From assembly GCA_964485795.1 (NCBI GenBank), contig CAZAJQ010000002.1:65043-129042 (forward strand): a DNA stretch of 64,000 bases. The letters are read 5' to 3'. Of the stretch, positions 38,740 through 59,194 are shown piece after piece (the first letter of the stretch is position 1; every line of letters begins with the position of its first letter). The position numbers were made by a program, and so were the translations under genes. This DNA comes from an uncultured Gammaproteobacteria bacterium. GTDB lineage: Bacteria; Patescibacteriota; Patescibacteriia; VMEV01; CAZAJQ01. The notes below the pieces were generated by a model, which made no database searches, was not told where the DNA came from, and was given only the letters and a program-made list of their open reading frames with translations.

Positions 38740-38928
38740 CATATATAAAAAATCGAAACTTTTGAGTTTCGCTTTTAAACAGCTTAAATTAGAATATTTG
38801 CGTTTGGAAGTCAACTTTTCTAGAGACAGTCTCAAGAATCTCGCGCAATGGTGAATTTAAAACCTCATAAGAGGCTGCATAACCCAAGACCGTTCGAGGT
38901 TTGCCATCGAGAAGTGCTTGCACACGCT

Positions 38929-39348: not shown

Positions 39349-39379
39349 ATCTTCTCCGTCAAAAAAAAATCACAAAACA

Positions 39380-41125: not shown

Positions 41126-41275
41126 AGACGATACAAAAAAAATACTCTTTCAACGCCTTTTGAAGCTATTTGTTCATCCCAGCAACGGAGCGATGGTAAA
41201 AATAATCATCGAGGCGATCATGATGATGACGATGCATTTCCACAATTTCTCCGCAAATTTTTTTTTCATAATCGT

Positions 41276-43060
41276 TCACCTTTTCAATACCGACAAAAAA
41301 ACATCGGGCGGTATATCCACCTTTCCTTGTCCCATTTCTTTCATCTTTTTTTTGCCCTTTTTCTGCTTTTCAAGCAATTTTCTCTTACGCGTCACATCGC
41401 CTCCGTAGAGTTTTGCGATCACATCTTTTCTCATCGCCGGAATGCGAGCGGCGGCGATGACTTTTGACCCGATGGCCGCTTGTAATTTTACTTCAAAAAG
41501 TTGCTTGGGTAAAACGGTTTTCAGCTTTTCCACGACTCTTTTTCCCGAATAATAAGCGTCGTCACGATACACAATGCTCGCCAATGCGTCCACGACTTCT
41601 TCGGCGATGAGGATATCGAGACGGATCACATCCGAAATCTGGTAATGGGAAAATTCATAGTTCAAAGATGCATAGCCTGAGGTGGCGGATTTGAGAATAT
41701 CGTAAAAATCCACCAGCAATGAAGAAAGCGGCAATTCATAGTGCAGGATGGCGCGCTCCTCGAGAACGTATTCGGTGGTGAGATACTTACCCCTTTTTTC
41801 GGCCACAAACGGCATGATATTCCCGACATACTTGCTGGGAGTGATGATGTCCACTTTCATGATCGGTTCTTCGATATGTTCGATCTGAGATGGATCGGGT
41901 AATTCTTGGGGCGAACGAATCGTCATGTTTTCACCGTTGGTTTTCACCACCTTGTACGCCACCGACGGAACCGTGATGATGAGATCAAGCCCAAATTCGC
42001 GTTTGAGTCTTTCTTGGAAAATTTCCAAATGCAACAACCCCAAAAATCCGCATCGAAAACCAAATCCCAAAGCGGGCGAATGCTCGGGTTCGTAGAGTAA
42101 AGACGCGTCCGTGAGTTTGAGTTTTTCTATTCCTTCGCGCAAAAATTCAAAGGCGCTTCCTTCTTTGGGAAATACTCCGGCAAAAACCATGGATTTTATT
42201 TCTTTGTATCCGGATAATGCTTCAGATACTCGGGGTGCGGCGATCGTATCTCCCACGCGGCAATCTCCGACCGCTTTCATGCCGGTCACGACATAGCCTA
42301 TTTCTCCGGATACGAGGCGCTCGCATTTTTTTCGATCGGGTTTGAAATACCCGACTTCCAAGACTTCGGCCTCTTTGGCGTTTGCCATGAATTTCACCCT
42401 GTCTCCTCGGCGAATGGAGCCGTCGACCACCCTGACATACGCGATCACACCCTGATAATCATCAAAGTAGGAATCAAAAATCAATGCTCTCGCCGGCTTT
42501 TCATCGGCCGCTTCCGGGGGGGGCACATGCTTCACAACCGCCGAAAGAACGGCCTCCACGTTTTTTCCTGTTTTCGCGGAAATTTTTACGATCTCATCTT
42601 CGGTGAAACCCAGCAATTTCTGCACTTCGCTCACCACGCGAGGAACATCGGCGGCCGGGAGGTCGATTTTATTGATCACCGGAATGATGGAGAGATTTTG
42701 ATCCAGCGCCAGATACAGGTTTGCAAGAGTTTGTGCCTGTATGCCCTGCGTCGCGTCAATAAGCAGCACGGCTCCTTCCACGGCCGCGAGCGAGCGAGAC
42801 ACCTCATAGGAAAAATCCACATGACCCGGCGTATCGATGAGATTGAGAATATACTCTTGACCGTCAAGCGAATATTCCATGCGCACGGGTTGCAGCTTGA
42901 TGGTAATGCCGCGTTCCCTCTCCAGATCCATGGAATCCAGCACCTGTTCCTTCATATGCCGCTTATCCACCGTACCCGTGATTTCCAAAAGCCTATCAGC
43001 CAAGGTGGATTTACCGTGGTCGATATGGGCTATGATGCAGAAATTGCGAATATTCGTCAT
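41276..43060 (-). CDS. lepA: Elongation factor 4 (LepA)
   Basis: [25 protein letters not shown]...DTPGHVDF...NKID. GTPase motifs plus the LepA C-terminal domain. 594 aa. Confidence 0.95.
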
Positions 43061-43132
43061 GGAATCTCAAAAAAATGTGCCATTCAAGGAAAAATATGGA
43101 TTTACACTAACAAATAAAATCATAAAAAAGAA

Positions 43133-43176
43133 GAGGTCGTGCATGTTTAATTTTGGATTGAATACGGCACGACCTC
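43133..43176 (-). terminator. Putative terminator (10-bp stem GAGGTCGTGC/GCACGACCTC, large loop, U-run on minus strand)
   Basis: Inverted repeat read from the sequence, followed on the minus strand by cttctttttt. Lies downstream of the 43203-43538 gene. Confidence 0.4.
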
Positions 43177-43202
43177 AAAAAAAGGTTGAATAAAATGATT
43201 TC

Positions 43203-43538
43203 TTAGGCGTCAGTAACTTCCATCGCTTCAAACACCTTGTATTGCAGCGGATTTCTGACAATAAGTTTATTCCTCTCCAGCGCCATCTTCAGGAGTTTCA
43301 TCTGAAGAGGTTTCCCTACGGAAATTTCGAGTTGACATTCGCCATCATCACAATAAGCGAAGATTCCTTCATTGCAAAGACTCGATCCTGCATACCCGCG
43401 CTGAATCTTTAAAAGAAAAACACTTCCCGTCTTCTCCACGAGGATTTTCATGCATGTGATCGAATAGACAACGTCTTCTTTAACAGAAAATCGCTTCTGT
43501 TCCCCTACCCTGAAAAAAAACTCAGTTTCCGAATTCAT
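43203..43538 (-). CDS. Hypothetical protein (111 aa from internal Met)
   Basis: ORF in the operon orientation downstream of the ligase-like membrane protein. No confident family (PilZ-like considered, not supported). Confidence 0.3.
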   Translation of the reverse strand: MNSETEFFFRVGEQKRFSVKEDVVYSITCMKILVEKTGSVFLLKIQRGYAGSSLCNEGIFAYCDDGECQLEISVGKPLQMKLLKMALERNKLIVRNPLQYKVFEAMEVTDA

Positions 43539-43629
43539 CTTTATTTCCTTTCCAACCGTTGAAAAATAAGAAAACATTCGAGCACAACAAGAAAAAAATA
43601 TACCATGAAATTCGATAGCGTACAACCTT

Positions 43630-45189
43630 TCATGCCTCCCTTTCCACATCGATCAAAAGTTTTCTCTCGATAATCACGGCAACCGCCATCACATATGCGA
43701 TGCCCAGCGGATGATTCAGGTAGGGCGTGAACATATGCACCGCAAGCAAAGCAAAAAAACTCAAAAGCATTCCAAAAAGATACGCCACGAATTCTTGATT
43801 TCCGCGCTTCTCGGCCGCAAAAAATTGCCGTACGCCTCGATAGCCTATTGCGCAAAGGAAGGTCAAATAGGCCATCATGCCCAAGAAACCCATTTTCAGC
43901 CATTGATCCAAATACCCCCATTCAAAAGCCGACGTCGTGATCACCCCGCTTCCGCCGGTTTGTTTGCGAACGGTCGGGTCATTGGAAACATAGGTGACGG
44001 CAGCGCCGAACCCTTTACCGAAAAAAAATTTCCCCGAAATCGAATTCCAAAGCGGCGGAAGCATCTGAAAACGGGTTGACAGCGCGGCCTCATCTTCATA
44101 GCCAAAGGCTCGGCTGGAAAAAACGTCCAATGCGTTGAAATCTTTTGCCGAAGGAATGGGAAATTTCACGGTAATCACGATCAGAATCAAAGCTAAAAAA
44201 ATGGTGGAAAAAATCAAACATCCTTGCAAAAAAATCCCTTTCCAAAACGATTTTGAATACCATGAAAAAATGATGATCCAAACCAGCGACGCCGCAAGCC
44301 CCGCGACCCAAAAACTTCTCGAAAAACTCATGAGCAGGACGGCTCCAAAAATCACCATGTGGCCATACCAAAAAAGCTGAACGCCGCTTAATCGCAGTGA
44401 TGCCTTTTTTACCTGCGGGAGAATATAAAAAACGCTGACGCAAACGGTGAGTATGAAAAATATCATCAAAGCATATATTTGGCTTTGGAAAAAAATGCGA
44501 TAAAAGGGCTCTTGCACTTTTGTGATTTCTCCCACGCGGGTATCTCTCACCCATGTATAGACGATTTTTAATATCGGGAGAAAAAAGGGATGTGAAAACA
44601 GATACAGCAAAACGAACATTTTTAAAATACCTCCCCACAAAGCTCCCAAAAGAACGGAAAGAAAAGTTTTCAAGCGATCTATTGAGATAAACGTTTCAAA
44701 AAGGGGGAAAAAATATGCATAATACAAAAATCCGTTTACATCAAAAAAAATCTCCCGCCTGTCGTTTCCGCTCAAAAATCCGTTGATGACACCCCATATC
44801 AAAAAAAGAAAAAAAATACCGGAGAAGATTATAGGCACTCGCAATGATGAATTTAACAATCGAGGAAATGATAGAAACGATTGATATTTTCGATCGAGGA
44901 GAAATCTTACAAACCAAATACCCATCACGCAAACAAAGATTCCCACTCGCAAAGAAAGCGAAACCCCACCGACGTTGAGCGCCAGCACATACCCCCATGA
45001 TCCGATCATCAGCTCGGTAAAGGCGGCGTAGAGTCCATATTCGAGGCGACGCAATGCGGCGCAAACGACGGCGACGATGACAGCGACAAAAAAATACGGT
45101 TCCAAAACCGGTACGATATGCGCCAAGAGTGAAATCACTTCCACGCAAACGACGCCGAGAAAACTCAGCAACATGATTTTCTTTTTCAT
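43630..45189 (-). CDS. Polytopic membrane protein, O-antigen ligase/polymerase-like (Wzy_C-type)
   Basis: About 12 predicted TM helices and a large periplasmic loop. Sits beside a GT4 glycosyltransferase and a Wzx flippase. Confidence 0.45.
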   Translation of the reverse strand: MKKKIMLLSFLGVVCVEVISLLAHIVPVLEPYFFVAVIVAVVCAALRRLEYGLYAAFTELMIGSWGYVLALNVGGVSLSLRVGIFVCVMGIWFVRFLLDRKYQSFLSFPRLLNSSLRVPIIFSGIFFLFLIWGVINGFLSGNDRREIFFDVNGFLYYAYFFPLFETFISIDRLKTFLSVLLGALWGGILKMFVLLYLFSHPFFLPILKIVYTWVRDTRVGEITKVQEPFYRIFFQSQIYALMIFFILTVCVSVFYILPQVKKASLRLSGVQLFWYGHMVIFGAVLLMSFSRSFWVAGLAASLVWIIIFSWYSKSFWKGIFLQGCLIFSTIFLALILIVITVKFPIPSAKDFNALDVFSSRAFGYEDEAALSTRFQMLPPLWNSISGKFFFGKGFGAAVTYVSNDPTVRKQTGGSGVITTSAFEWGYLDQWLKMGFLGMMAYLTFLCAIGYRGVRQFFAAEKRGNQEFVAYLFGMLLSFFALLAVHMFTPYLNHPLGIAYVMAVAVIIERKLLIDVEREA

Positions 45190-46391
45190 GTGACGATGGA
45201 CTCAATATGTCTCATGATGGGTTCCATTCTTTTTTCCCAGGTATGCTCCCTCATTTGTTCGCGCCGCATCAGCCTCTTGTCTTCCGAATCGGTTTCAAAA
45301 GCCACGCGGATATTGGCCAAAAACTCATCATGTCCGTCGGAAAGGTAAACGAGGTTCGCAAAACGCGTGAGAGAATCAGATCGGGTCGCCACCACCGGTT
45401 TTCCGCAGGCGAGGTAATCGTAGAGTTTCATGGGATCCATTGACTCGCAAAAAGCGGAGTTTTTATGCGGTATGATGGCCACGTCAAACGCGTTGATCAA
45501 TGCGACTGCGGAAACGTATGGCACTCTTCCGGGAAAAAAAACGTTTTCATACCCACCCAGCTCACGATTCACTTCATCGGCGACGGTTTTCCAAATTTCT
45601 CCGGCGATGATAAAGGCAAATTCGGGATAACGCAAAACGGCCTGCTTTACCAAAGCTATGTCAAAACGTTCCTGGACATTGCCCACATAACCGACGACGG
45701 TTCTTTTTTTCCCGGCAATATCAAACGGATTGATATGAAATAATTTCTCAAGCTCTTCATGAGCATTATTTTTGCATGCGCTTGCAAACGCTTTCACATC
45801 CACGCCATTGGGAGAGAAAAAGGCTCTTGAATGTCCATGAAATTTTTCAAGAAGCCTCTTGGAAACCGTAAAAATCACGTCGGATCTTTTTGCGATCACA
45901 TCGTAATTTTTTGATAATTCCTTTTTATACTTCTTATAATTGGGATGCAGCGACCAGTCGTCCACGGCATGAAAGACAAATTTCGCATCCGGAAAAGCAT
46001 CGAAATAATCGATATACAGAGGATTGTATGACCATACCACTGGCGGCTCATCCCATTTTTTTGCATACTCGACGGCCAAGCGATCCGAAAATCCGGTGGA
46101 AAAAACGATTTTTTCGTTTCTTCGACCGAATATATGCGCGGGAAAATACAATTGACCCGACGCATTTCCCATAAGATAGCCATCCTTTCTGACATACATG
46201 CGATCCAAAAAAAACATCCGAAATTTTCTTTCCAATGAAAACGGAAGAAAATCAATGGCAAGGATATGCGTCACTTCATCTCGTTTCGAGAGTTCGGAGA
46301 GTATCTGCCGATTGCAATTGACGACACCCTTTTCCCAATCCGAAGCCGGAGACATATTGTACATCACGATATTCATAGCCGTGGAAATCAT
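45186..46391 (-). CDS. Glycosyltransferase, GT4 family (glycos_transf_1)
   Basis: C-terminal GT-B motifs (GYVGNV...FIIAGE...NVFFPGRV...CGKPVVAT) with the conserved E. Confidence 0.8.
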   Translation of the reverse strand: MISTAMNIVMYNMSPASDWEKGVVNCNRQILSELSKRDEVTHILAIDFLPFSLERKFRMFFLDRMYVRKDGYLMGNASGQLYFPAHIFGRRNEKIVFSTGFSDRLAVEYAKKWDEPPVVWSYNPLYIDYFDAFPDAKFVFHAVDDWSLHPNYKKYKKELSKNYDVIAKRSDVIFTVSKRLLEKFHGHSRAFFSPNGVDVKAFASACKNNAHEELEKLFHINPFDIAGKKRTVVGYVGNVQERFDIALVKQAVLRYPEFAFIIAGEIWKTVADEVNRELGGYENVFFPGRVPYVSAVALINAFDVAIIPHKNSAFCESMDPMKLYDYLACGKPVVATRSDSLTRFANLVYLSDGHDEFLANIRVAFETDSEDKRLMRREQMREHTWEKRMEPIMRHIESIVT

Positions 46392-46490
46392 CGTTTGCTG
46401 AGCCGATCATTTCGGATATCCATTCCTTTGCAGAAAAAAGCATATGCGAAACATTCCGGAGAAGAGATTTTAAATTCAATCGTTATAGAA

Positions 46491-47948
46491 TCAATATTCA
46501 CGCTCCTCGACGCTCAGATGCGTTGAAGGTTTTCGAAAATACGACAATAACTCATTCAAATCATGGCGATCCACGATGCGGAAAACAAATAGTCCGACTG
46601 TATAGATCAGCCCTCCGACGGGGATCGCAGCGAGAAAATGAATGAAATTTTTCGACCAAATCACCCCAAGCATCATGATCATCGCCAAAAAGAGAGTTTT
46701 CGCGAAAAAAAATACCATACCCATCCTCAATCGGACGAGGCGGTTTGCAAAAAACATGCCCAAAACAAGAAATATGCCGTAGCTTATCAAAAGCGAAATG
46801 CTGGCTCCAATATGCTGACTTCGGGGAATGAGTATGAAATTCAAGACAACATTGCTCACCAAGACGGCGGCCAAAATCCATGTATGCTGCTTTTGACGAT
46901 TGCAACCGTTCAGCAACGCTCCCACGGGAAACGTCAAAAAAGAAAAAATGATTGAGAGGCTCATGAAGGAAAGCGCGGGGATGGAAAGCGCAAAAGCATC
47001 GGAATACACCATCATAATGATATCCCGCGATAAAGCGAATATCCCAAACGCGATCGGAAATGAGATCACGGTCATATATTTCAATCCCGTTTCATAGAGA
47101 TGCGCCAGTTTCGCGCGATTCGTGTCATAAGCTTCGCTGATGGCTGGATATAATGCCGCGGAAAATGCGATGGGAATGAATTGCAAAGCAAAAGTGATCT
47201 TATACGGTACGGAATACAAGCCCAAAAATTTTTCACCGGAAAGAAACGCCAAGAGCAGCTGATCGGAAAGCCCGAAAAGTCGCGCAAACACGGCGGAAAG
47301 TGCAAACGGTATCGATAGAACGGTGATTTTTTTCATGAGCGAAACGTCCCGATAGGGCTTGATCGCGACACCCAATTTATTCCGGAGCAAAGCAGCCGAC
47401 CAGATGATCTGAAATACGCTTCCGACCAATAATGCGAAAAGCAAAGTGTACAGGGGAGCATGAAGGAGGAGAGCGCCCGTACCGACCAGCAACGTGATGG
47501 CCTGACTCACGATAATCGCCATCGATTCATAACGCAAATTTTGAAACCCGCGAAAAACTCCCCAAAAACTCAATGTAAATGCATCCAATATCATGGTCAG
47601 GAGAGCCAAAGCTATCATCAACTTCATGTCAAACGGCTTTTGGAGAAAAAAAAGCGATATCCCAAGCATCGCCGCAACCAATGCGGAGAGAAATGATTTG
47701 ACAACGCATATGGCCGAAAGGTAGGAGGCGGCTCGCTTGCGATCTTGCGCCACTTCGCGAATGAGAATCGGCGTGAATCCAAGGTCCACGAACACGGCAA
47801 AAAGCCCCGCAAATGAAAGCGAAAACGTATACATGCCGGTAGCCTCCACGCCGATAAAACGCGTTATCAACGTAAAGTAGAGAAAAGAAAAAATCTTTTG
47901 CCCCACATAGGCGAATGTCAAAAAAGTAGCGTTTTTTGCCAATGACAT
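46491..47948 (-). CDS. Polysaccharide biosynthesis flippase (Wzx, MOP superfamily)
   Basis: 485 aa, about 14 TM helices. The N-terminus MSLAKNATFLTFAYVGQKIFSFLYFTLITRFIG is typical of the Polysacc_synt family. Confidence 0.8.
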   Translation of the reverse strand: MSLAKNATFLTFAYVGQKIFSFLYFTLITRFIGVEATGMYTFSLSFAGLFAVFVDLGFTPILIREVAQDRKRAASYLSAICVVKSFLSALVAAMLGISLFFLQKPFDMKLMIALALLTMILDAFTLSFWGVFRGFQNLRYESMAIIVSQAITLLVGTGALLLHAPLYTLLFALLVGSVFQIIWSAALLRNKLGVAIKPYRDVSLMKKITVLSIPFALSAVFARLFGLSDQLLLAFLSGEKFLGLYSVPYKITFALQFIPIAFSAALYPAISEAYDTNRAKLAHLYETGLKYMTVISFPIAFGIFALSRDIIMMVYSDAFALSIPALSFMSLSIIFSFLTFPVGALLNGCNRQKQHTWILAAVLVSNVVLNFILIPRSQHIGASISLLISYGIFLVLGMFFANRLVRLRMGMVFFFAKTLFLAMIMMLGVIWSKNFIHFLAAIPVGGLIYTVGLFVFRIVDRHDLNELLSYFRKPSTHLSVEEREY

Positions 47949-48041
47949 AAAGACGAATAAAGATCCTCTCTGGTACCAGAGATCATATCATAAAAAAAGC
48001 CCGCAGATGAGCGGACTTTTTTCTTCTCACTGAAAAAAAGT

Positions 48042-48488
48042 TTAACGTTTGGCCCATTGCGGCGCTCGTCGGGCTTTTTTCAAACCCGGCTTACGACGCT
48101 CTTTCACTCTCGGATCGCGTGTGACAAAACCCGCCTTTCGAAGCGTTTTTTTGTTTTCCGGATCCAGCAAAACCAATGCCTTGGCGATACCATGTCGCAA
48201 GGCGTCCGATTGTCCGCGTTTTCCACCGCCATAGACTTTGGCATCCACGGAATATTCTTTTTTCATGCCCAGCACCTGAAACGGCGATACGATCGCATAC
48301 TTCATATCGGCCGTAAATCCCAAAACCTGTTCATAATTTTTCCCATTGACCACAATATCACCCTTGCCGGTCATATACAGCTTCACTCTCGCGATGGATG
48401 ATTTTCTCTTTCCCACCGCATAAAGGTACTTTCCTTCGAAAGCGGCTTTTGAGTCATTTGATTCGACTGATGGAGATGGCTTCGTCAT
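48042..48488 (-). CDS. rpsI: 30S ribosomal protein S9
   Basis: GKRKSSIARV...GGGKRGQSDALRHGIAKAL...RDPRVKERRKPGLKKARRAPQWAKR. Confidence 0.95.
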   Translation of the reverse strand: MTKPSPSVESNDSKAAFEGKYLYAVGKRKSSIARVKLYMTGKGDIVVNGKNYEQVLGFTADMKYAIVSPFQVLGMKKEYSVDAKVYGGGKRGQSDALRHGIAKALVLLDPENKKTLRKAGFVTRDPRVKERRKPGLKKARRAPQWAKR

Positions 48489-48494
48489 AAGAAA

Positions 48495-48857
48495 TTACTT
48501 GTTTATGGTCAAGCGTTTCAACCAGATTTTCTTTAATTTGTTCTTTGGCAGCATGGTATTGATAGCATGTTCCAAAACTTTTTTCGGATTATGCTCCATC
48601 AAAGAATCCATATGCTCCTCGATGATTCCGCCCGGATATCCGGTAAATCGATAATATTTTTTTTGCTCCAACTTTCGCCCTGAAGTGCGCATCTTTGAGA
48701 CGTTGTTGACGATCACAAAATGTCCCATATCGATATGGGGAGTGTAGTCAACGCGATTTTTCCCCCGTAAAAGTCGAACGATTTCCGAAGCCAATCTTCC
48801 CACGATTTTATCCGTGGCATCAAGCGTAATGGTTTTTCTTTCAAGAGTTGTATTCAT
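48495..48857 (-). CDS. rplM: 50S ribosomal protein L13
   Basis: ...LDATDKIVGRLASEIVRLLRGKN...YYRFTGYPGG... Confidence 0.95.
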   Translation of the reverse strand: MNTTLERKTITLDATDKIVGRLASEIVRLLRGKNRVDYTPHIDMGHFVIVNNVSKMRTSGRKLEQKKYYRFTGYPGGIIEEHMDSLMEHNPKKVLEHAINTMLPKNKLKKIWLKRLTINK

Positions 48858-48866
48858 ATCCTCGCC

Positions 48867-49217
48867 TTATACAAATTGAATAACCGACACTTTCGCGGCA
48901 TCTCCGCGTCGCTGCCCCATATTCATGATTCTCGTATACCCGCCGTTTCTCTTCGCGTATCGCGGACCGATCACTTCCAGCATTTTCTTGACGGCATTTT
49001 TGTCGGTAAAAAATCGCAACAATTGTCTTCGAGTCGCGATATCGTTGCTTCGGCTCTTGGTCACATAACGCTCGATTATCGGACGAATCTCTTTTGCTTT
49101 CGCTCGAGTCGTTTTGATCTTTTCATACAAAACCAAGCTGGTCGCCAAATTTCGAAGAAGCATTTTGCGATGCGGAGTGGTGCGTTTGAGAATTCTGCCC
49201 TTATGAAGATGTTTCAT
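48867..49217 (-). CDS. rplQ: 50S ribosomal protein L17
   Basis: MKHLHKGRILKRTTPHRKMLLRNLATSLVLYEKIKTTRAKAKE... Confidence 0.95.
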   Translation of the reverse strand: MKHLHKGRILKRTTPHRKMLLRNLATSLVLYEKIKTTRAKAKEIRPIIERYVTKSRSNDIATRRQLLRFFTDKNAVKKMLEVIGPRYAKRNGGYTRIMNMGQRRGDAAKVSVIQFV

Positions 49218-49235
49218 AGACTTCGGTCAATGGAA

Positions 49236-50114
49236 TTATTCGGTTTTTTTCGGTCTTCCGCGTTTTTTCTTTTCTTGCGTGGATTCGTCGGCGATCGGTG
49301 ATTCTTCCTGCGCGCCGGCTGTCAATCCCGCTTCCGCGACTTCCACGACATGTTCATCGGCCGTTGACGGTTCGACGGCGACTTTCGCGCGGCGCTCCTC
49401 GTCTTGCTTTGCAAGCGCTTCTTTGAGATTGGATTTGGTCATGAGATGCAGGTGCATGATAAGGGTATCGGCCGCATAAGCGCATGCCTCTTCGGCCGTG
49501 ATCGTGCCGTCGGTTTCGACGGTCAAAATGAGCTTGTCAAAATTCGTCATCTCACCGACGCGAACGTTTTCAATCTTGTAGCCGACATTGACGAGAGGAA
49601 CAAAAATACTGTCAATATCGATCACTCCGACCTCTTCTCGATCGGTTCTCTGCTCCGTAGCATAGTAGCCAAAACCTTTTTTCACGAAAATATCCATTTC
49701 AATAGGCTTTTTTGCATCCGTCACCGTAAAAAGCGCAAAGTCCGTATTAATGATCTCAACAGCCGAATTTTTGTCTATTTGCCCGGCTTTCACGATCCCC
49801 TCTTCATCGACTTTCAGATGCAGTCGAATCTCTTCATCCGTGTTTTCAAAAATTTTCATGCGCAGCTTTTTGAATCGCAAAATTATCTCAATAGCATCTT
49901 CCAGCACCCCAGGTATCGTGGCAAATTCATGATCCACTCCCTTAATTTTTATGGCCGTAACCGCCGCTCCGGGAATCGACGACAAAAGTACGCGACGCAA
50001 AGTATTGCCAAGCGTTGTCCCATACCCAGGGAAAAGCGGCTCAAAAATAAGCTCCGACTTTTTGTCCGTAATGTTATGAAATTGAATTTTTTCAGGCAAT
50101 GGTATGGTTTTCAT
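49236..50114 (-). CDS. rpoA: DNA-directed RNA polymerase alpha subunit, no recognisable alpha-CTD; Lys/Arg AT-hook-like C-terminus
   Basis: N-terminal domain (...FEPLFPGYGTTLGNTLRRVLLSSIPGAAVTAIKIKGVDHEF...) is canonical. No alpha-CTD helix-hairpin-helix segment is recognisable in the tail. The protein ends with an acidic linker then ...TQEKKKRGRPKKTE (RGRP AT-hook core). 292 aa. Confidence 0.9.
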   Translation of the reverse strand: MKTIPLPEKIQFHNITDKKSELIFEPLFPGYGTTLGNTLRRVLLSSIPGAAVTAIKIKGVDHEFATIPGVLEDAIEIILRFKKLRMKIFENTDEEIRLHLKVDEEGIVKAGQIDKNSAVEIINTDFALFTVTDAKKPIEMDIFVKKGFGYYATEQRTDREEVGVIDIDSIFVPLVNVGYKIENVRVGEMTNFDKLILTVETDGTITAEEACAYAADTLIMHLHLMTKSNLKEALAKQDEERRAKVAVEPSTADEHVVEVAEAGLTAGAQEESPIADESTQEKKKRGRPKKTE

Positions 50115-50183
50115 ATTTTTGATGATAAATTTTTACCTTTCGGCCGTACGCATTTATCATGTTAATGATGAATAAAAAAATGA

Positions 50184-50798
50184 TTATCTTGAATAAAATT
50201 CGACAACGGTTTTGACATTCGCCGTTTCCATCTGACTCGTCACATCCGGATCGGAAATGATTTTGCCTTCGAATTTTGCGGCATCAAGGTACAGCCACCC
50301 GGGTATGTTTTTGCCGGTCAAATCTTTTGCCAAATCACGGTACATCTTGGACTGCTTGCTTTTTTCGCGGATACTGATGATTTCTCCGGTTTTCACGCGA
50401 TATGAGGGGATATTTACTTTTTTGCCGTTCACAAGGATATGAGCGTGAGAAACTTTTTGCCTCGCTTCGGCGCGGGTTTTGGCGAACCCAAGTCGGTAAA
50501 TGACATTGTCCAGTCGACGCTCCAAAAACTGCAAAAGATACAAGCCCGTATCACCTCTCTTCACCCTCGCTTCCTTGTATGCCTTGATAAATTGCTTTTC
50601 TCGCAATCCATAGGAACGCTTCAGCCTTTGCTTGGTGCGAAATGCCGTCCCATATTCGGTCAATCTCGGCATACCCTTGGGGCCATGCATTCCCGGCGGA
50701 TATTTTCGTCGCGTCAAAACCTTTGCGCACGATTCATTGTCAAAAATCTTTACACCCTCTCGTCTGCAAATTTTTCCTTTGGTTAATTTTGATGGCAT
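50184..50798 (-). CDS. rpsD: 30S ribosomal protein S4
   Basis: MPSKLTKGKICRREGVKIF...PGMHG... plus the S4 domain. Confidence 0.95.
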   Translation of the reverse strand: MPSKLTKGKICRREGVKIFDNESCAKVLTRRKYPPGMHGPKGMPRLTEYGTAFRTKQRLKRSYGLREKQFIKAYKEARVKRGDTGLYLLQFLERRLDNVIYRLGFAKTRAEARQKVSHAHILVNGKKVNIPSYRVKTGEIISIREKSKQSKMYRDLAKDLTGKNIPGWLYLDAAKFEGKIISDPDVTSQMETANVKTVVEFYSR

Positions 50799-50810
50799 AC
50801 GTGAATATAA

Positions 50811-51212
50811 TTATACTCTTCGAGGTCTCGGAGGACGGCATCCATTGTGCGGAATGGGGGTGATATCTTTGATCGTGATAACTTCCAATCCATTGGCGTT
50901 CAAGGCTCTGACCGCGGATTCTCTTCCCGTACCGACTCCTTTCAAAAATACGTCGACCTGCTTCATCTGATGAGAAATCTTTGCGGCGGCGTCCTTCACG
51001 ATCATTTGCGCCGCATAAGCCGTGGCTTTTTTGGGACCCTTGAACCCCATTTTCCCCGCGCTTGCCCATGACAGAACATTCCCCTTTTCATCCGTAAAGG
51101 TTACCAAGGTGTTGTTGTACGTGGCCTTGATATAGGCGCGACCTCGAGAAGGGATGGATACCTTTTTGCGTTTTTTCCGAGCTCCTTTTTCTTGGGCTAA
51201 AGCCATATGCAA
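50811..51212 (-). CDS. rpsK: 30S ribosomal protein S11
   Basis: ...[30 protein letters not shown]...[26 protein letters not shown]. Confidence 0.95.
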
Positions 51213-51224
51213 TGTTTAGAAAAA

Positions 51225-51611
51225 TTATGTCTTCTGACCGGTAAGCTTGCGTCCGCTTCCCATGGTCTTGCGAACGTTTCCTCGGACGGTGCGGCTATTG
51301 GTCTTGGTTCTCTGCCCTCTCACCGGAAGACGCTTGGCATGACGAATGCCTCGATAGCAATTGATTTCGCGAAGCAAACGAATATTCAGAAGCTTTTGGC
51401 GACGAAGATCTCCTTCAACGACCATTTTTTTTACGGCATCACGAATGAGATTGACCTGATCGTCGGAAAGGCTTTTGGTGCGGATGCTTTTGTCGATCCC
51501 AAGATCATCCAAAATGCGTACCGACATTTTACGACCGATGCCATAAATGTACATGAGTGCGACCTCGATTCTTTTGTTATCCGGCAATGCCACTCCTGAG
51601 ATGCGTACCAT
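51225..51611 (-). CDS. rpsM: 30S ribosomal protein S13
   Basis: MVRISGVALPDNKRIEVALMYIYGIGR... Confidence 0.95.
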   Translation of the reverse strand: MVRISGVALPDNKRIEVALMYIYGIGRKMSVRILDDLGIDKSIRTKSLSDDQVNLIRDAVKKMVVEGDLRRQKLLNIRLLREINCYRGIRHAKRLPVRGQRTKTNSRTVRGNVRKTMGSGRKLTGQKT

Positions 51612-51646
51612 AAAAAAAATTTAATTCTCTAAAGAATACATTTGGA

Positions 51647-51763
51647 TTATCCCTGTCTCTGTTTATGCTTGGCGATTTTTTTACAAATCACCACCACTCG
51701 CCCTTTGCGTCTGGTGATGATGCAATCCTTGCAGATTTTTTTGACCGATGCTCTGACTTTCAT
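51647..51763 (-). CDS. rpmJ: 50S ribosomal protein L36 (38 aa; missed by ORF track)
   Basis: Manual translation: [38 protein letters not shown]. Canonical L36 with a CxxC...C...H zinc ribbon, in the expected infA-rpmJ-rpsM position. Confidence 0.85.
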
Positions 51764-51800
51764 AAACCAAAAGTTCGTAAGATAATTTTATCTGAAACCA

Positions 51801-52019
51801 TCAATATCGATAGACGATTCTTCCCTTGGTAAGATCATAGGGACTGAACTCGATCTTTACTTTGTCCCCGGGCATGACTTTGATCTTGTGCATGCGAATC
51901 TTCCCCGACAGATGCGCTAAAATCGTATGACCGTTTTCCATGGTCACGCGAAACCGCGCTGCGGGTAAAGCTTCAAAAACGGTACCGTCCATGGTAAGGA
52001 CTTCTTTACCCTGCGTCAT
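51801..52019 (-). CDS. infA: Translation initiation factor IF-1
   Basis: [72 protein letters not shown]. Confidence 0.95.
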
Positions 52020-52131
52020 AGCTGAATACCTTCAAAGAAAAAAAATGAATCATGCAGAGAATCAATAAAAAATATGGATATACCTCTGATACCCACATTT
52101 GATCTTTTGGCTGAAAATCGTACTTTTTTGA

Positions 52132-52158
52132 ACATTAATGATAGTATACGGGTTCAAA
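52132..52158 (-). promoter_or_regulatory. Candidate sigma70 promoter for infA-rpmJ-rpsM... (TTGACT, 16 nt spacer, TATACT on minus strand)
   Basis: Reverse complement reads ttgacttttctttttgaacccgtatact, about 110 nt upstream of infA. Confidence 0.35.
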
Positions 52159-52290
52159 AAGAAAAGTCAAGGATTGCGCTGCCGTATCGAGCAGCTCAAT
52201 GTCTTCGAAGCACAAAAAATCAATAAATAAACCTCCTTTCTCGACTTGCTATGAAACAAGTGAAAAAAGAGGTTTAAACGTGATACGCCC

Positions 52291-53649
52291 TCAGCTTTTT
52301 AAGAGTCGTATCCTCATATTTCTGTAGTTGACCATGAAATCGACTATCCATGGGAGTTTCATAAACTCATCACGCTTACTCAATGTATCCCATAAAAGAT
52401 CGAAAACTTTGATGAAATGCTTTTGGCCGTGATTCGCCTGATAGAGACAGTACATGACCGCCATCATCTCCTCCACGGATTTAAAAACGGTCCAGGAAAA
52501 ACCATCCTTTTTATTCTTCGCCCCTTTTACCGACAATCCGTACAGCTCAGTTATTCTCGAAATAAAATGGATAGGTATGAACTGAGACAGTGGCTTGATA
52601 TATTTTTCTTGAAACATTGCCTCATCTTCAGCTTTCCATTTTTTTCCGAATGAACCTTTTTTCTGATAGGAAGCCATATCTCCCAAAAATATTTCTCCCA
52701 TATCATGAATGAGGGACATCAATACATAGTCTCGAGGCTCTATTCTCCGATAATGAGGAGAAAGGATGGAGAATCCTGCTCTGCAAAGTTTGATGATATG
52801 CTCCAGAACAGTTTCATAATTTCCATAAACTTCTCCGTTGGCTCTGCTGATCCAGCGGTTAATCCCGTCGAGCGAAAAAATGGCATCAAGAAAAAAAATG
52901 GCATGATCATCGTTCATAGACCCTGAAAAAAAAATTTGCCAATACTTCTTTTTTGATAACGCCTCTTTGCATTTTTTAAATTGGAGTTGGCAAAAAAAAC
53001 TTCCCCAGGCTGCTTTTTTTGCATCGATTGCCATGGACACTTGTACACGCCAGTACAACCAGTCGCAAATCATGATGCAATCATTGATCAATTCGGATCC
53101 CTGTTCTCGAGTCAAATTCAAAGAATCTTTTACAAACCGCGTGTCCCGGCTGTCCAAATAGGGAACCTTCAAATCAAATACATGCTTTGACTCTTGAGCG
53201 TACAGCTTGAAAATTTCCACTTGCAAATCATAGTGATTCAAAGCCAAACTGGTTACATCTCCCATCCGATGCCATATCAGATCTCGAAAAAGAATATGGG
53301 AAAACAGCCGCGCCTCCAAACTTTCAGCTCCTTCCGACATATCCATTCCATAGATATCGCAGAGTTCCTCATATGTCTTTTCGTGCAGCATGGCGCAGAG
53401 AATAAACAATCGCAAATACGCCTGATGAAGCCCCGTGAACTTTTTTGGAGGAAAATAGAAAGCACACTTGTACGGCTCATACTCACGAAGTATTTTGCAC
53501 ATCCACGCGTCAAACTCCAGATGCTGCTTTAATGTTTGAGTCGATACTTTCTTTCCCGTTTTTGGAGATTTTTCTTTCATACAAAAGTCCTTTCCATTCA
53601 AATAAAAATAACAAAAAACATGCCACGACATCCGTATCATAGCATCCAT
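52291..53649 (-). CDS. Hypothetical protein with C-terminal HD-domain-like phosphohydrolase motifs
   Basis: ...ETVLEHIIKLC...(28 aa)...LMSLIHDMGEIFLGD... matches the H...HD...D pattern of HD domains. The N-terminal 250 aa have no recognisable family. AT-rich ORF inserted upstream of infA. Confidence 0.5.
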   Translation of the reverse strand: MDAMIRMSWHVFCYFYLNGKDFCMKEKSPKTGKKVSTQTLKQHLEFDAWMCKILREYEPYKCAFYFPPKKFTGLHQAYLRLFILCAMLHEKTYEELCDIYGMDMSEGAESLEARLFSHILFRDLIWHRMGDVTSLALNHYDLQVEIFKLYAQESKHVFDLKVPYLDSRDTRFVKDSLNLTREQGSELINDCIMICDWLYWRVQVSMAIDAKKAAWGSFFCQLQFKKCKEALSKKKYWQIFFSGSMNDDHAIFFLDAIFSLDGINRWISRANGEVYGNYETVLEHIIKLCRAGFSILSPHYRRIEPRDYVLMSLIHDMGEIFLGDMASYQKKGSFGKKWKAEDEAMFQEKYIKPLSQFIPIHFISRITELYGLSVKGAKNKKDGFSWTVFKSVEEMMAVMYCLYQANHGQKHFIKVFDLLWDTLSKRDEFMKLPWIVDFMVNYRNMRIRLLKS

Positions 53650-53752
53650 ACATTAGTAAATCTCATCACGAAAGTCAAAAATAAGAAATAAAAAAGCCTC
53701 CCTTGTATCGTTTCTTGTTACAACACGCGGGAGGCAATATTCCTGTTTTAAA

Positions 53753-54001
53753 TTACACGGGACTGTGCTTCTTGAGAAGCACTTCAATCATGGTGACTAG
53801 GTCGCCGATGGTTTCTCTGGGCCCTTCATAACTATGGGTTTTTACATTGAATAAATCTTCTATTCGGTTATAAAGAACCAGATAACCAATCTCATCAAAC
53901 CATCCACTCAGTGGGGTACTTTCCATGATAAGTTCCCCGGGAATGGGCGTGTCTTCGAATAGAATTGTTGCTAATGTAGTAAAAATTTCAGCTCGGTTCA
54001 C
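53753..54001 (-). CDS. Small hypothetical protein, possibly carrier-protein-like (82 aa)
   Basis: Segment ESTPLSGWFDEIGYLVLYNRIEDLF loosely resembles the helix-II region of ACP/DltC-type carrier proteins. Hairpin plus U-run (53675-53735) downstream. Weak assignment. Confidence 0.3.
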   Translation of the reverse strand: MNRAEIFTTLATILFEDTPIPGELIMESTPLSGWFDEIGYLVLYNRIEDLFNVKTHSYEGPRETIGDLVTMIEVLLKKHSPV

Positions 54002-54262
54002 TCTTTTTTATCCTTTCATAAAAAAGCAGTCCATATCCTAAAACTTTTTTTAAGGTTTCACTAAACCCCTTTTTCTTACATGCTCATGTCCTTTGAGGTT
54101 TTCAGAGTTTTTTTCGTTGGCCTCCTTCATCTGAAAAAACCTACCTTTCTTTATTTCTTTATCAAAACAACGAACAAAACAACAAATAGTATCCACTCCA
54201 AGCTCGGAAGTCAAGCTATCGCATTGAATCCCCCCTTGGTATACAAACGACTTCTTGTCATT

Positions 54263-55384
54263 CTATCCTCCCGCCAAATTCACGAAAAACCCGAAAATTC
54301 TGCCTCCATATCTCTGGATATCCTGAAACGTCACCACCACCATCAGAGTTATCAGAAGCGCAAAGCCGATGCCGTGGGCGATATTTTCAAATCGCATGCT
54401 CAGCGACCTTCCTCCGCGAAGAAGCTCAAAAAACAGAAAGAGAATACGCCCCCCATCAAGAGCCGGAAAAGGAAGAATATTCACAATCGCAAGGTTCAAA
54501 GAAAGAAAAGCCGAGAATTGCAAAAGCTGCACAAAACCTCGCTCCACGACCTCGCCGGTCAAAACCGCAATGCCTATGGGGCCAGTCACTTCAAAGTCAA
54601 CCTTTTCACGCTGAATAAACTTCACGACCAATCCCGCGAGCGCCTTTCCCACCTCCCATGTAATCACGGCCGTTTCAGAAAAACCTTTCACTGCAGCATT
54701 CAAAGGAGCATAAGAGACGATCCCGATATGCGCCAATTCGATGCCGAGAATATTTTTTTGATAATCATCATTCCATTCGGTTTTCACCCAAAAATTCAAT
54801 ATTTCCTGCTTCCGTTGCAAAGCCAGACTGATTTCGCGATCTTCTCCCTCTCTCAAAATTGCATTGAACTCATCGGTATTCTTGACGGGTCGATAATTGA
54901 CGCTCAAAATGCGATCATGGGAAAGAATTCCAGCTTCATATGCGGGGCTTTTTTCAAGAACGGAAACGATTTCCACACGGCTGTCGGAAATCATGGCCGC
55001 GGAATCATCGGAAACCCGATCCAATGGCATGGTGACGCCCATCATGAATGTCACGGACAAAAGTACGCCCGCCAAAATCATATTCATGATCACTCCGGCG
55101 CTCAGAATATATGCGCGCGCCAGGATGCTTTTGTTTGAAAAACTGCTCGGGTTTTCCCGATCTTCGCCGGTTTCGCCTTTGATTTTCACAAACCCTCCCA
55201 AAGGAATCCAGTTGACTGAATACAAGGTATCGCCTTTTCGATACGAAAAAATCCGCGGTGGAAATCCGATCGCAAATTCATCAACCTGCACGCCCATGTG
55301 CTTGGCGGCCATAAAATGACCGAGCTCGTGGACAAACACGAGCAATGCAAGGACGGCTATGAATGCAAGTATGGTGGATATCAT
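54263..55384 (-). CDS. rseP: Site-2 protease RseP (M50 zinc metalloprotease with PDZ)
   Basis: MISTILAFIAVLALLVFVHELGHFMAAK (HExxH in TM1). PDZ region. C-terminal TM helices with an LDGG motif. Confidence 0.9.
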   Translation of the reverse strand: MISTILAFIAVLALLVFVHELGHFMAAKHMGVQVDEFAIGFPPRIFSYRKGDTLYSVNWIPLGGFVKIKGETGEDRENPSSFSNKSILARAYILSAGVIMNMILAGVLLSVTFMMGVTMPLDRVSDDSAAMISDSRVEIVSVLEKSPAYEAGILSHDRILSVNYRPVKNTDEFNAILREGEDREISLALQRKQEILNFWVKTEWNDDYQKNILGIELAHIGIVSYAPLNAAVKGFSETAVITWEVGKALAGLVVKFIQREKVDFEVTGPIGIAVLTGEVVERGFVQLLQFSAFLSLNLAIVNILPFPALDGGRILFLFFELLRGGRSLSMRFENIAHGIGFALLITLMVVVTFQDIQRYGGRIFGFFVNLAGG

Positions 55385-55396
55385 GAAACAATGGGG

Positions 55397-55951
55397 TTAT
55401 ATTTCCCGCAACTCGGTCGATTTTTTCTCTGCCAATTCACGAATTTTTTCATTATATTCGCCGCAAAACATATCCAGCTCTTTCAAATATCGAAATTTAT
55501 CGTCTTCGGTGATATCTTTCCCCTTTTCGGCTTCCAATATCGTTTCGCGAGCCTTGTCCCTCGCCTGTCGAACCTTGATTTTTGCATCTTCGACTTTTTC
55601 ACCGAGCTTTTTTATCAGCTCATTTCTTCGCTCCTCGGTAAGCGGAACCATTCCGATCCGAATCATATTCCCTTCATTGACCGGCGAAAATCCAAGATTC
55701 GCGGCGGCGATGCTCCTTTCAATATCTTTAATCACGGACTTGTCCCAAGGCTCGATGGCGATCGTTTTCGGATCCGGCGCTGAAATACTCGCCAATTGCT
55801 TGAGCGGGCTTCGCATGCCATAGGCTTCGATACTGATGTCTTCGACCATCGCGGGATTGGCCCTGCCGGTACGAATCGTCACAATGTCTTTTTTGAAATA
55901 CTCGATAATGCCGTCAAATTGAGGTTTGTGTTCGAATACAAATGGATTCAT
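55397..55951 (-). CDS. frr: Ribosome recycling factor
   Basis: ...FDGIIEYFKKDIVTIRTGRANPAMVEDISIEAYG...TEERRNELIKK... Start set at the internal Met (MNPFVFEH), giving 184 aa. Confidence 0.9.
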   Translation of the reverse strand: MNPFVFEHKPQFDGIIEYFKKDIVTIRTGRANPAMVEDISIEAYGMRSPLKQLASISAPDPKTIAIEPWDKSVIKDIERSIAAANLGFSPVNEGNMIRIGMVPLTEERRNELIKKLGEKVEDAKIKVRQARDKARETILEAEKGKDITEDDKFRYLKELDMFCGEYNEKIRELAEKKSTELREI

Positions 55952-56120
55952 AGGAGAGTACGTTATCCAAAAATTATGAGGTTGCCGATCTATTACAAAA
56001 TATCGTCGGAATATCTGCACGGCGTAATAGGCTTGCTTTACTACCGCATGTGGCTTCAATATCTTTCATAATTTTCCGTTCATTGTCAATGATTCGGAAA
56101 CGCTCCATGTGATGAAAGTT

Positions 56121-57149
56121 TTAAAGCGGCGATATGGCACCCAGATAGAGGGTATTGAAATCTTTGGGATCGATCAATATCGGATGCCCGACACGCTTCG
56201 TGGGAAGAGGTGCGGTGCTCCATGTCTTGCCGCCATCAATCGAATGATAAAAATTCGTCAGCGTCGAGTAGTATATCTCATCGGAATTTTTGGGATTCAC
56301 GGACACGCTGAAAATGAACACTTTCCCTATTTCGGACAAAAGAGGAATATTCACCCAATTTTTACCGCCATCGGTGCTTCGGAAGAGGCCGTAATTGGAA
56401 GCATAGAGTATTCCGTCTTTTTGATTCGCATCCGGCTGCATATCGCGATAAATCCACGCTTCAAAAAGCCCTTCCAAACTCTGGCTGACATTGTCCCATG
56501 TCTCACCGGCATTGGAGCTGCGATAGATGCCGCGCTCGGTGAGAGCAACATAGATGATGCGAGTGTCACGCTCGTTGATGACGATACGCTCGATCTTGTC
56601 CAAAAATTTTTGCAAAAGCCTCCAGCTTTTCCCGCCGTCTTCGCTAGCGAGCAAACTGCCGTTTGAAAGCGACGCATACACTTTTTCCGGATTGTACCCG
56701 TCAATCTGAAAATCCGTCACCAAATCCTGATTCGTATCCGTATAGAGAAGCTCCCATGCATTCCCGCCATCCTTGGTTTTGAATATCTTCCAATCTATGG
56801 CCGTATAAATCACCTTGCTGTCTTTGGGATGAACCTTGATCGTTTGCACTCTGCCTTTATTCGTGAAAAAGGGTATCCACGTTTCACCGCCGTCTTTTGT
56901 CAGAAAGGCTCCGTCTTCGCGCGACCCCAGATAGATGATCTTGCTATCCTGCGGGTCAAACTGCATCGTGACCACATTCACCTTGTCAATCGCTAGAGTT
57001 TTGCGTCCTTGCTTGCCTATGAAAACCTTTTGCTCCCATTTCCCCCCCTTGTTTGAACTTCGAAAAACACCGCCGTCCTGCGTCTTTTGCACGGTAATGC
57101 AACCCGTCAACAAAAAGGTGCATAAGAAAAGAAAACATATTTTTTTCAT
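56121..57149 (-). CDS. BNR/Asp-box repeat lipoprotein (Ycf48/sialidase-like beta-propeller)
   Basis: Lipobox FLLTGC. At least seven S/TxDGGxxW repeats (TKDGGETW, TKDGGNAW, SEDGGKSW, STDGGKNW, SIDGGKTW...). Start set to the internal Met (MKKICFL) with a 4-nt overlap of holB. Confidence 0.7.
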   Translation of the reverse strand: MKKICFLFLCTFLLTGCITVQKTQDGGVFRSSNKGGKWEQKVFIGKQGRKTLAIDKVNVVTMQFDPQDSKIIYLGSREDGAFLTKDGGETWIPFFTNKGRVQTIKVHPKDSKVIYTAIDWKIFKTKDGGNAWELLYTDTNQDLVTDFQIDGYNPEKVYASLSNGSLLASEDGGKSWRLLQKFLDKIERIVINERDTRIIYVALTERGIYRSSNAGETWDNVSQSLEGLFEAWIYRDMQPDANQKDGILYASNYGLFRSTDGGKNWVNIPLLSEIGKVFIFSVSVNPKNSDEIYYSTLTNFYHSIDGGKTWSTAPLPTKRVGHPILIDPKDFNTLYLGAISPL

Positions 57150-58087
57150 ACTCGCTGTTTTTTTATTTGAAGAAAAAGATTTTGTAAAAGAAGGGGCTCG
57201 GACAAAGGGATCTTTTCCATTTTCCGTCTCCACTCCAAAATCCAATCGGCGATCATTTTATGAGAAAGGAGTCTCTGTTGTTTTTCAGAAGCATCCTCAC
57301 CCTGATCGCTCTCCAGAAATGATTTTCTCACGCGATGCAAAACAAAATCCATAACTTCAGAAATATCGTGATGCTTGATGATGTCCTGCTCATTGTCCAT
57401 ACTCCCCCGATCGAGAATATCGGAAACCAATTTCCAAAGCTTCAGAGCGTGTTCAAAATCATCCCTGTTTTCCGCATATCGTTTTGCACAACCGAGCTTT
57501 CCAAACGTAAGCTCCGCAATGTTTTTTGCTTCATCATCGGAACAGGACAAGTCTTTCAAAAAATCAAAGATTTCGACATCGGATGCGATCGAAACCGAAT
57601 ACTTTTGAGTTCGAGAAAGCATGGTGGGAAGCACGTTCGAAAGGTTGCTCGATGTCATCAAAAAAATCGTGCCGGGAGGCGGTTCTTCCAGAAGTTTTAA
57701 AAGTGCATTGCCCGCTTCAAGGGAAAGATGCTCGATGTTTTTCAGTATAGCAATTTTATACGAACCGAGAAACGATTTTTGATACAGGGTTTCCTTCAGT
57801 TGCCGTATGCGTTCGATGGGAATAAAAAATTTTTCCGATTCTTTTTCCAAAAAATAAACATCCGAATGAATCCCTTTTTCCATCTGCGAGCAATGTAAAC
57901 ATCGACCGCAAGGAACAAAAGCCTTTCCATCGGGTTTTTCGCACAGGATCATCTGGCAAAAACACCGCATCAGAGTCGATTTGCCGACATGCGAAGGGCC
58001 GGAAATCAACGTGGCGTGATGGATTCGCCGTAAACGCAATGCGAGTCGAAAAATATTTTTTTGCGTCTCATGACCGAAAACTTTCAT
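57146..58087 (-). CDS. holB: DNA polymerase III subunit delta'
   Basis: ...HATLISGPSHVGKSTL... P-loop-like, CGRCLHC zinc module and an AAA+ clamp-loader fold. 313 aa. Confidence 0.85.
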   Translation of the reverse strand: MKVFGHETQKNIFRLALRLRRIHHATLISGPSHVGKSTLMRCFCQMILCEKPDGKAFVPCGRCLHCSQMEKGIHSDVYFLEKESEKFFIPIERIRQLKETLYQKSFLGSYKIAILKNIEHLSLEAGNALLKLLEEPPPGTIFLMTSSNLSNVLPTMLSRTQKYSVSIASDVEIFDFLKDLSCSDDEAKNIAELTFGKLGCAKRYAENRDDFEHALKLWKLVSDILDRGSMDNEQDIIKHHDISEVMDFVLHRVRKSFLESDQGEDASEKQQRLLSHKMIADWILEWRRKMEKIPLSEPLLLQNLFLQIKKQRV

Positions 58088-58168
58088 AGTTTTAAAAAAG
58101 ATTCCCCGCTCAAGAAATCAACGGATAGACATCATGGAGTTATCCTGAATTTTACATCATGCCGTGCT

Positions 58169-59176: not shown

Positions 59177-59194
59177 GGTAAATGCGGATACGCT

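Follow-up and report, generated by a model that had tools for sequence, protein, structure and literature searches.

In the canonical alpha subunit of bacterial RNA polymerase (RNAP), of the E. coli RpoA type, an N-terminal domain (NTD) is connected by a flexible linker to a C-terminal domain (alpha-CTD, PF03118). The NTD assembles alpha2-beta-beta', and the alpha-CTD, treated as near-universal in bacterial RNA polymerase, serves as the hub for UP elements and for class I and class II activators. AT-hooks place an R-G-R core into the narrow minor groove of A/T-tracts; those of the HMGA type were reportedly described by Aravind and Landsman in 1998. Hooks and RNA polymerase come together in Myxococcus, where the RNAP-binding protein CarD contacts AT-rich promoter-upstream DNA by means of HMGA-like AT-hooks and an acidic region; CarD is, however, a separate accessory protein with several hooks and not an alpha subunit.

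Alpha dimerises; assembly and basal transcription do not depend on its CTD, whereas the action of UP elements and activators does (PMC8321222). Alpha subunits that have naturally lost the CTD but kept the NTD have been described from reduced genomes: those of the insect endosymbionts Hodgkinia and Tremblaya and, with the chloroplast rpoA, of Euglena (PMC8321222). Loss of the alpha-CTD in Parcubacteria is covered by one sentence of the same paper, and in the source cited there (PMC4508563) RNA polymerase is absent from the main text. AT-hooks are considered rare in bacteria (PMC8786299). [quoted passage not shown]

The rpoA gene described here lies on the minus strand of a 64-kb stretch of DNA, analysed as a whole and referred to below as the window (GC content 45.8 %). 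The order of genes on that strand is rpsM, rpsK, rpsD, rpoA, rplQ, rplM, rpsI, so that rpoA sits in the canonical S13-S11-S4-rpoA-L17 operon (Table 1). The synteny of rpsD with rpoA is conserved in related loci, and L17 was matched by tblastn in all of them, with Pfam Ribosomal_L17 found in loci L081-L086. An NCBI entry annotated as 'MAG: DNA-directed RNA polymerase subunit alpha [Parcubacteria group bacterium]' matches the protein at 100 % identity, which places the window in a genome of the Candidate Phyla Radiation (CPR; Patescibacteria). Against the equivalog model TIGR02027 it scores 237.0 bits (cut-off 227.8), with model positions 2-238 of 298 aligned; for want of the C-terminal third it stays under the cut-offs of the PRK05182 sub-models. 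The protein thus has the NTD, the equivalog score and the synteny of the RpoA family and lacks the alpha-CTD. It is an authentic alpha subunit of RNA polymerase, typical of its lineage, whose alpha-CTD has been replaced.

Table 1. Features of the rpoA locus, in window coordinates
Feature	Position	Strand	Basis or remark
rpsK	50811..51212	minus	ORF
rpsD (ribosomal protein S4), immediately upstream of rpoA	50184..50798	minus	ORF
rpoA, RNA polymerase alpha subunit without alpha-CTD, 292 aa	49236..50114	minus	ORF, TIGR02027
Alpha NTD (residues 1-226), dimerisation and insert domain, intact	49437..50114	minus	PF01193, PF01000, AlphaFold2
Extra alpha-helix opening the tail (residues 227-246)	49377..49436	minus	AlphaFold2 DSSP, pLDDT about 70-80
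Disordered acidic linker (residues 247-281)	49272..49376	minus	AlphaFold2, composition
AT-hook K282-K290 (KKK-RGRP-KK), then T291, E292 and stop	49245..49271	minus	Sequence, Pfam AT_hook
rpoA stop codon TAA	49236..49238	minus	18 nt upstream of rplQ start
rplQ (ribosomal protein L17), immediately downstream, bounds rpoA	48867..49217	minus	ORF; ATG at 49217

The NTD is orthologous to that of canonical alpha and stands at the same operon position. Pfam places PF01193 at residues 25-222 (profile positions 1-74 of 74, E=2.8e-22) and PF01000 at residues 55-171 (profile positions 1-118 of 119, E=2.9e-26). In an AlphaFold2 model with a 37-sequence alignment as input, 10-residue blocks of residues 11-220 have mean pLDDT values of at least 90, apart from one block at 82. 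Alignments of the alpha subunits in the PDB to RpoA, for all solved ones, are confined to the NTD; that of an E. coli-length PDB alpha chain pairs 7-226 with 11-232. The stretch 49236-49420, corresponding to residues ~232-292, is the post-NTD tail. No secondary structure is predicted by AlphaFold2 beyond residue 246; pLDDT is below 50 for residues 253-279, and the 10-residue block means for residues 251-292 are 44, 36, 43, 58 and 52. Residues 233-281, which include part of the helix, carry a net charge of -9, and the protein ends in ...ESTQEKKKRGRPKKTE followed by the stop codon. RpoA therefore consists of the alpha NTD and a tail of ~60 residues made up of one helix, a disordered acidic tether of ~35-50 residues and the AT-hook KKKRGRPKK.

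Absence of the alpha-CTD was examined at the level of domain models, structure and coding potential. PF03118 finds no match in RpoA even at E<=10 (Pfam), and only the first ~240-250 positions of the NCBIfam rpoA models (298-344 positions) align to it. A CPR-specific alpha-CTD HMM, built from 15 CTD-bearing CPR relatives and searched with filters off, gives -1.3 to 0.8 bits on the RpoA protein, and no hit in any of the six reading frames of the entire window (top score 3.1 bits, E=9) or in 152 kb from 20 related CTD-less loci. The same HMM detected the CTD in 10/10 held-out control loci, drawn from Saccharibacteria, Nealsonbacteria, Taylorbacteria, Chloroflexota, Alphaproteobacteria and Bacteroidota, at E<=4e-10. 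The AlphaFold2 model contains no folded region past residue 246. A CTD hidden behind a frameshift, against which the initial annotation had cautioned, was rejected: the three frames downstream of the NTD were translated in addition to the six-frame HMM searches, and nothing was found. Moreover, since the rpoA stop lies 18 nt before rplQ, no frameshift could supply a CTD of ~85 residues in any frame, and rescue of the domain is impossible. In 14/14 independent CTD-less CPR assemblies, among them the closed chromosomes OZ246416.1 (886 kb) and OY970175.1 (899 kb), S4, rpoA and L17 follow one another directly, and rplQ begins 5-38 nt after the rpoA stop. [quoted passage not shown]

An AT-hook was defined as a GRP core preceded by R, with K/R on both flanks. 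Residues K282-K-K-R-G-R-P-K-K290 of RpoA have this form, and the motif is located in a segment that AlphaFold2 leaves disordered and non-globular. Pfam AT_hook (gathering threshold 17.4 bits) aligns to residues 282-291 at 12.5 bits when the full protein is searched, and scores 16.5 bits (E=0.007) on the isolated tail. For comparison, a sequence taken as that of human HMGA1 scores 16.2 bits as a whole three-hook protein, also under the threshold; taken singly, its hook 1 scores 13.2 bits and its hook 3 gives no match. P0009, a relative of RpoA with two hooks, scores 20.7 bits and lies above the threshold. Given that HMGA1 itself falls short, the Pfam cut-off is uninformative for single hooks; judged by score, the predicted hook of the RpoA tail matches the family as well as the archetype does. 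Two statements of the initial annotation are borne out by these results: that the 292-aa protein has no recognisable alpha-CTD, by Pfam, NCBIfam, the lineage HMM and AlphaFold2, and that it closes with an acidic linker and an AT-hook-like KKKRGRPKK, by sequence, charge, Pfam scores and homologues.

The tails of related alpha subunits were compared in the best 120 database homologues of RpoA, clustered at 90 % identity, and can be grouped into five classes. Class one, retaining the alpha-CTD, includes 15 of these relatives. Class two, ending in an acidic linker and an AT-hook of the [KP][KR]K-RGRP-[KR]K type, includes 44, 41 of them with exact RGRP; AT-hook tails are thus widespread among the related rpoA genes. 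Class three, with an acidic linker and a lysine-rich (poly-K) tip, includes 37. Class four, with an acidic tail only, includes 11, and class five, a bare NTD of 227-250 aa, includes 13. Exact RGRP in 41/105 CTD-less tails compares with 0.015 expected (1000 tail shuffles, maximum 1). The hook consensus, [KP][KR]K-RGRP-[KR]K, lies 3-17 residues from the C-terminus, within linkers that are otherwise unalignable. RGRP was found in none of the CTD-bearing alphas (0/15 among the best 120, 0/89 among 50 %-identity representatives), nor within the NTD of any of the best 120 homologues, and hook and alpha-CTD are mutually exclusive in all sequences examined. The search of 50 %-identity representatives returned mostly CTD-bearing distant alphas and frameshifted sequences, and added four tails of the hook type; RGRP is exact in three of them and degenerate (RGRK) in the fourth, P0208.

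The linker of the hook class is 15-83 residues long (median 35). Homologue linkers cannot be aligned with one another, yet all are acidic (median net charge -6), and an acidic linker with 30-37 % D+E and a net charge of -5 to -7 is common to all tail classes. Degenerate hooks, namely RGRA, RGRK, LGRP and KGRA, occur among the relatives; from their sequences, they suggest that lysine tips and AT-hooks interconvert. On a neighbour-joining (NJ) tree of the NTDs the AT-hook class requires 15 parsimony changes, against ~39 with shuffled labels. Tail classes are strongly clustered on it yet interleaved, a pattern to be read as that of a single 229-column protein, which cannot count events or separate one origin from several. 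The taxonomic extent of the tail classes can be sketched from species-representative genomes, with ~25 CPR loci among the matches listed. Among these matches, which are mostly non-CPR, every non-CPR phylum sampled keeps the CTD, as do Saccharibacteria, Nealsonbacteria and Taylorbacteria. An AT-hook is present in Candidatus Veblenbacteria (Parcubacteria group) and in the closed 886-kb chromosome OZ246416.1, and poly-K tips are present in several Paceibacterota/Parcubacteria genomes; the closed 899-kb chromosome OY970175.1 carries a tail of the poly-K type.

Selection on the hook is evident from nine hook-bearing genomes with a local GC content of 30-55 %, in which the RGRP residues are invariant. 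The codons are not: all four Pro codons are in use, along with three for the first Arg, three for Gly and five for the second Arg. Codon differences in the hook number 171 synonymous versus 28 non-synonymous, and every non-synonymous difference falls in two flanking positions upstream of the core. Invariant residues encoded by freely variable codons mean that it is the hook peptide, as protein sequence, that is under strong purifying selection. A DNA-level signal, such as a translation element for rplQ, was rejected, as the hook codons vary and their distance to the stop ranges over 3-17 codons.

What the tail does can be proposed by analogy. Our preferred reading, in which belief and doubt are evenly balanced, is that the hook is a tethered minor-groove anchor that replaces the contact between alpha-CTD and UP element. 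Alpha being a dimer, each RNAP would carry two flexibly tethered hooks. [quoted passage not shown] The acidic tether may limit non-specific adhesion of the basic tip. As a polyanion it may, in addition, compete with DNA for the hook, which would then be captured by favourable AT-rich minor grooves only. The UP-element-type, activator-independent role of the alpha-CTD would thus be carried out by a different, minimal module, and its activator-docking role would simply have been lost. Such a loss fits the sparse transcription-factor repertoire of CPR, which have no CRP/FNR-type activators (PMC12531629). Among ~36 intergenic regions of the window, searched with a simple and noisy -35/-10 matcher that works from predicted rather than mapped transcription start sites, A-tracts near -45 to -55 precede some strong promoter candidates (e.g. 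upstream of 35346) but not many others, and A/T-tracts at -40 to -60 are not a uniform feature of the predicted promoters.

The initial annotation had suggested that an AT-hook could stand in for the alpha-CTD on AT-rich upstream DNA. The mutual exclusion of hook and CTD, the selection on RGRP in the nine genomes and a tether long enough to reach speak for this, and substitution of the DNA contact may be inferred from them. The suggestion does not extend to the docking of activators, which a hook cannot replace. Nor is the hook obligatory after loss of the CTD: relatives have tails with poly-K tips, acidic tails only or none, which shows that a specific AT-hook is not required once the CTD is gone.

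The proposed anchor can be set against the systems described above. RpoA shares with canonical alpha an assembly domain flexibly tethered to a DNA-contacting end, that contact being predicted here from the sequence; it differs in that the helix-hairpin-helix CTD of ~85 residues is absent, with a 9-residue AT-hook on a longer and strongly acidic tether, and in that the class I/II activator surface is absent as well. WhiB7 likewise holds a C-terminal RGRP AT-hook on the RNAP holoenzyme, and the same mechanism is proposed for the RpoA tail. WhiB7 is, however, a separate and inducible sigma-bound Fe-S protein with a specific regulon, whereas the RpoA hook is covalently built into the core enzyme, in two copies, and could act at potentially every promoter. 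No Wbl domain was detected in RpoA, where Pfam and NCBIfam find alpha-NTD domains only, and the presumed resemblance to WhiB7 is one of function only. With HMGA-type AT-hooks (PF02178) the tail has in common the R-G-R-P core, the K/R flanks and the position in a disordered region beside acidic stretches. HMGA1 has three hooks per chain, as against one per chain and two per alpha dimer in RpoA (two per chain in P0009), and the RpoA hook is bacterial and fused to a core subunit of RNAP. In Hodgkinia, Tremblaya and Euglena the loss has been described as erosion, nothing having been added in its place; in the RpoA of the window, a conserved motif with predicted DNA-binding function stands at the new C-terminus.

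An alternative with some claim to attention, though unlikely, is that the tail is a generic electrostatic anchor to DNA or nucleoid, whose basic tip raises the non-specific affinity of RNAP for DNA (in sliding, promoter search or retention) with no AT-specific or promoter-upstream role, the AT-hook being one sequence solution to this end. Consistent with this, poly-K tips with a net charge of +5, compared with +6 for hooks, sit on equally acidic linkers in 37/105 of the CTD-less tails, hook and poly-K clades interleave in the tree of NTDs, and the degenerate forms RGRA, RGRK, LGRP and KGRA suggest interconversion. Generic basic charge may indeed be the common denominator of the tails. Charge alone, however, does not explain the invariant Gly and Pro, nor the exact RGRP in 41 proteins, kept through saturating synonymous change in genomes of 30-55 % GC; this exactness points to the minor-groove-inserting conformation of a true AT-hook. 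The phylogenetic clustering of the tail classes (15 changes versus ~39 expected) also argues against a generic anchor.

It is improbable that the disordered acidic linker is the main element, i.e. a polyanionic mimic of nucleic acid that sharpens promoter specificity or aids recycling, with the tip folding back as an intramolecular regulator. Comparable elements would be region 1.1 of sigma70 or, in Gram-positive bacteria, the acidic C-terminal region of the delta subunit. The linker is shared by all tail classes, and 11 relatives have an acidic tail without a basic tip; against this, 13 relatives have no tail, no sequence is conserved within the linker, and an exact AT-hook at the tip, instead of any basic patch, is left unexplained.

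A tail directed at RNA or ribosomes, with the basic tip on nascent RNA, rRNA or ribosomes (e.g. in transcription-translation coupling) and not on promoter DNA, is very improbable. AT-hook-like and lysine-rich peptides can bind RNA, and rpoA is embedded in a ribosomal-protein operon, but such an operon is the universal setting of rpoA and is uninformative as to the function of the tail. The alpha NTD, moreover, is on the upstream, DNA-facing side of RNAP, the usual workplace of the alpha-CTD, and the documented bacterial RGRP hook tethered to RNAP acts on promoter DNA. That the tail is meaningless read-through left by a frameshift, misassembly or pseudogene decay is refuted: clear artefacts by frameshift or duplication do occur among database relatives (e.g. 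P0121 and several tails outside the five classes), but the space before rplQ is too short for a CTD, none of the frames has CTD-like coding potential, the same architecture recurs in dozens of independent assemblies, closed chromosomes included, and the hook is selected at the protein level.

A minor-groove anchor on RpoA, if confirmed, bears on more than this locus. A more tentative proposal, towards which we lean slightly less than away, is that a large block of CPR, of Parcubacteria/Paceibacteria-type lineages with Veblenbacteria included, has rebuilt the reading of upstream promoter DNA. The CTD would have been discarded and two HMGA-style hooks (lysine tails in sister clades) mounted on acidic tethers in the core enzyme, and recognition would be independent of activators and guided by the shape of the minor groove, with a different 'UP-element grammar'. 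If so, a major bacterial radiation runs upstream-promoter recognition and regulation differently, essentially without alpha-CTD-dependent activation, and AT-hooks are a recurrent part of the core enzyme in bacteria. A tethered minor-groove arginine clamp could then be the minimal need for UP-like stimulation. Loss of the alpha-CTD as such is already known. Full-text searches of an incomplete literature returned no description of AT-hook, lysine-tail, acidic-only or bare variants of RpoA, and no description of an AT-hook replacement on this subunit; as read from the sequences, the architecture is possibly new, and would then be a previously undescribed one for the bacterial transcription initiation machinery. 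The RpoA tail would also be relevant to promoter prediction and to heterologous expression of genes from uncultured CPR organisms.

No long ORF of the window other than rpoA has a canonical K/R-flanked RGRP hook, and AT-hooks as a general habit of the organism's proteome were rejected on this ground. One other RGRP occurs near position 4080 on the minus strand, in a 92-aa reading-frame segment outside the greedily chosen ORFs; its downstream flank has acidic and aromatic residues, and it is treated as a chance occurrence.

Besides the C-terminal AT-hook, alpha subunits without an alpha-CTD show three further tail architectures, noted in RpoA homologues P0010, P0013, P0020, P0045, P0058 and others, and at the related loci L002, L013, L014, L018, L019, L035, L036, L041, and L047. 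A lysine-rich tip on an acidic linker is the second common architecture, e.g. ...KKAKKKKSE and ...KKVAKKAKKK. The third consists of the acidic tail alone, and the fourth of a bare N-terminal assembly domain of 227-250 aa, as in P0026 from Candidatus Uhrbacteria. Variation is also evident within the hook itself. The 330 aa relative P0009 carries two AT-hooks, RGRGRPKK near residue 266 and KKRGRPKK near residue 321, and its Pfam AT_hook score of 20.7 bits is above the gathering score. Degenerate hooks (LGRP, RGRA, RGRK, KGRA) occupy the same C-terminal position in P0047, P0048, P0113, P0136, and P0208, and may be evolutionary intermediates between the lysine tip and the canonical AT-hook.

Among the homologues, P0121 (569 aa) is an RpoA sequence repeated exactly, head-to-tail, most likely through an assembly artefact. 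Two alpha-NTD stretches are also present in P0125 (526 aa) and P0139 (664 aa).

Four of the related loci, L003 (OZ246416.1, an 886-kb chromosome), L006, L007, and L013, are titled 'uncultured Gammaproteobacteria bacterium' in their GenBank MAG records. The rpoA genes of all four are CPR-type, lack the alpha-CTD and have an operon context resembling that of CPR, and one of the four chromosomes or contigs is a chromosome of less than 1 Mb; the Gammaproteobacteria label looks wrong.

Additional features surround rpoA in the window's own operon. The rpmJ gene is missing from ordinary ORF lists because it is too short. Equivalent gaps of ~130 nt at related loci probably also contain rpmJ, which among these loci is called in L086 only. 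The spacer upstream of rpoA may act as an internal promoter or in regulation; alternatively, it may simply be AT-rich spacer. An Rfam scan of the whole window (1..64000, 64 kb) at gathering threshold gave zero matches, with no tRNA, ribosomal-protein leader or riboswitch.

Features neighbouring rpoA in the window
Feature	Position	Strand	Remarks
rpmJ (ribosomal protein L36), 38 aa	~51647..51763	minus	between the 51801..52019 ORF and rpsM
infA (probable)	51801..52019		by synteny with L081-L086
rpsD-rpoA spacer, 69 nt	50115..50183		26 % GC; T-run (...atcatttttttattcatcatt...)

Near the hook-type rpoA of homologue P0005, locus L082 (1..358) holds a 378-aa product with Sigma70_r4 and a faint match to HARE-HTH, the fold of the delta-subunit N-domain. 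This product may bear on the organisation of hook-type RNA polymerases.
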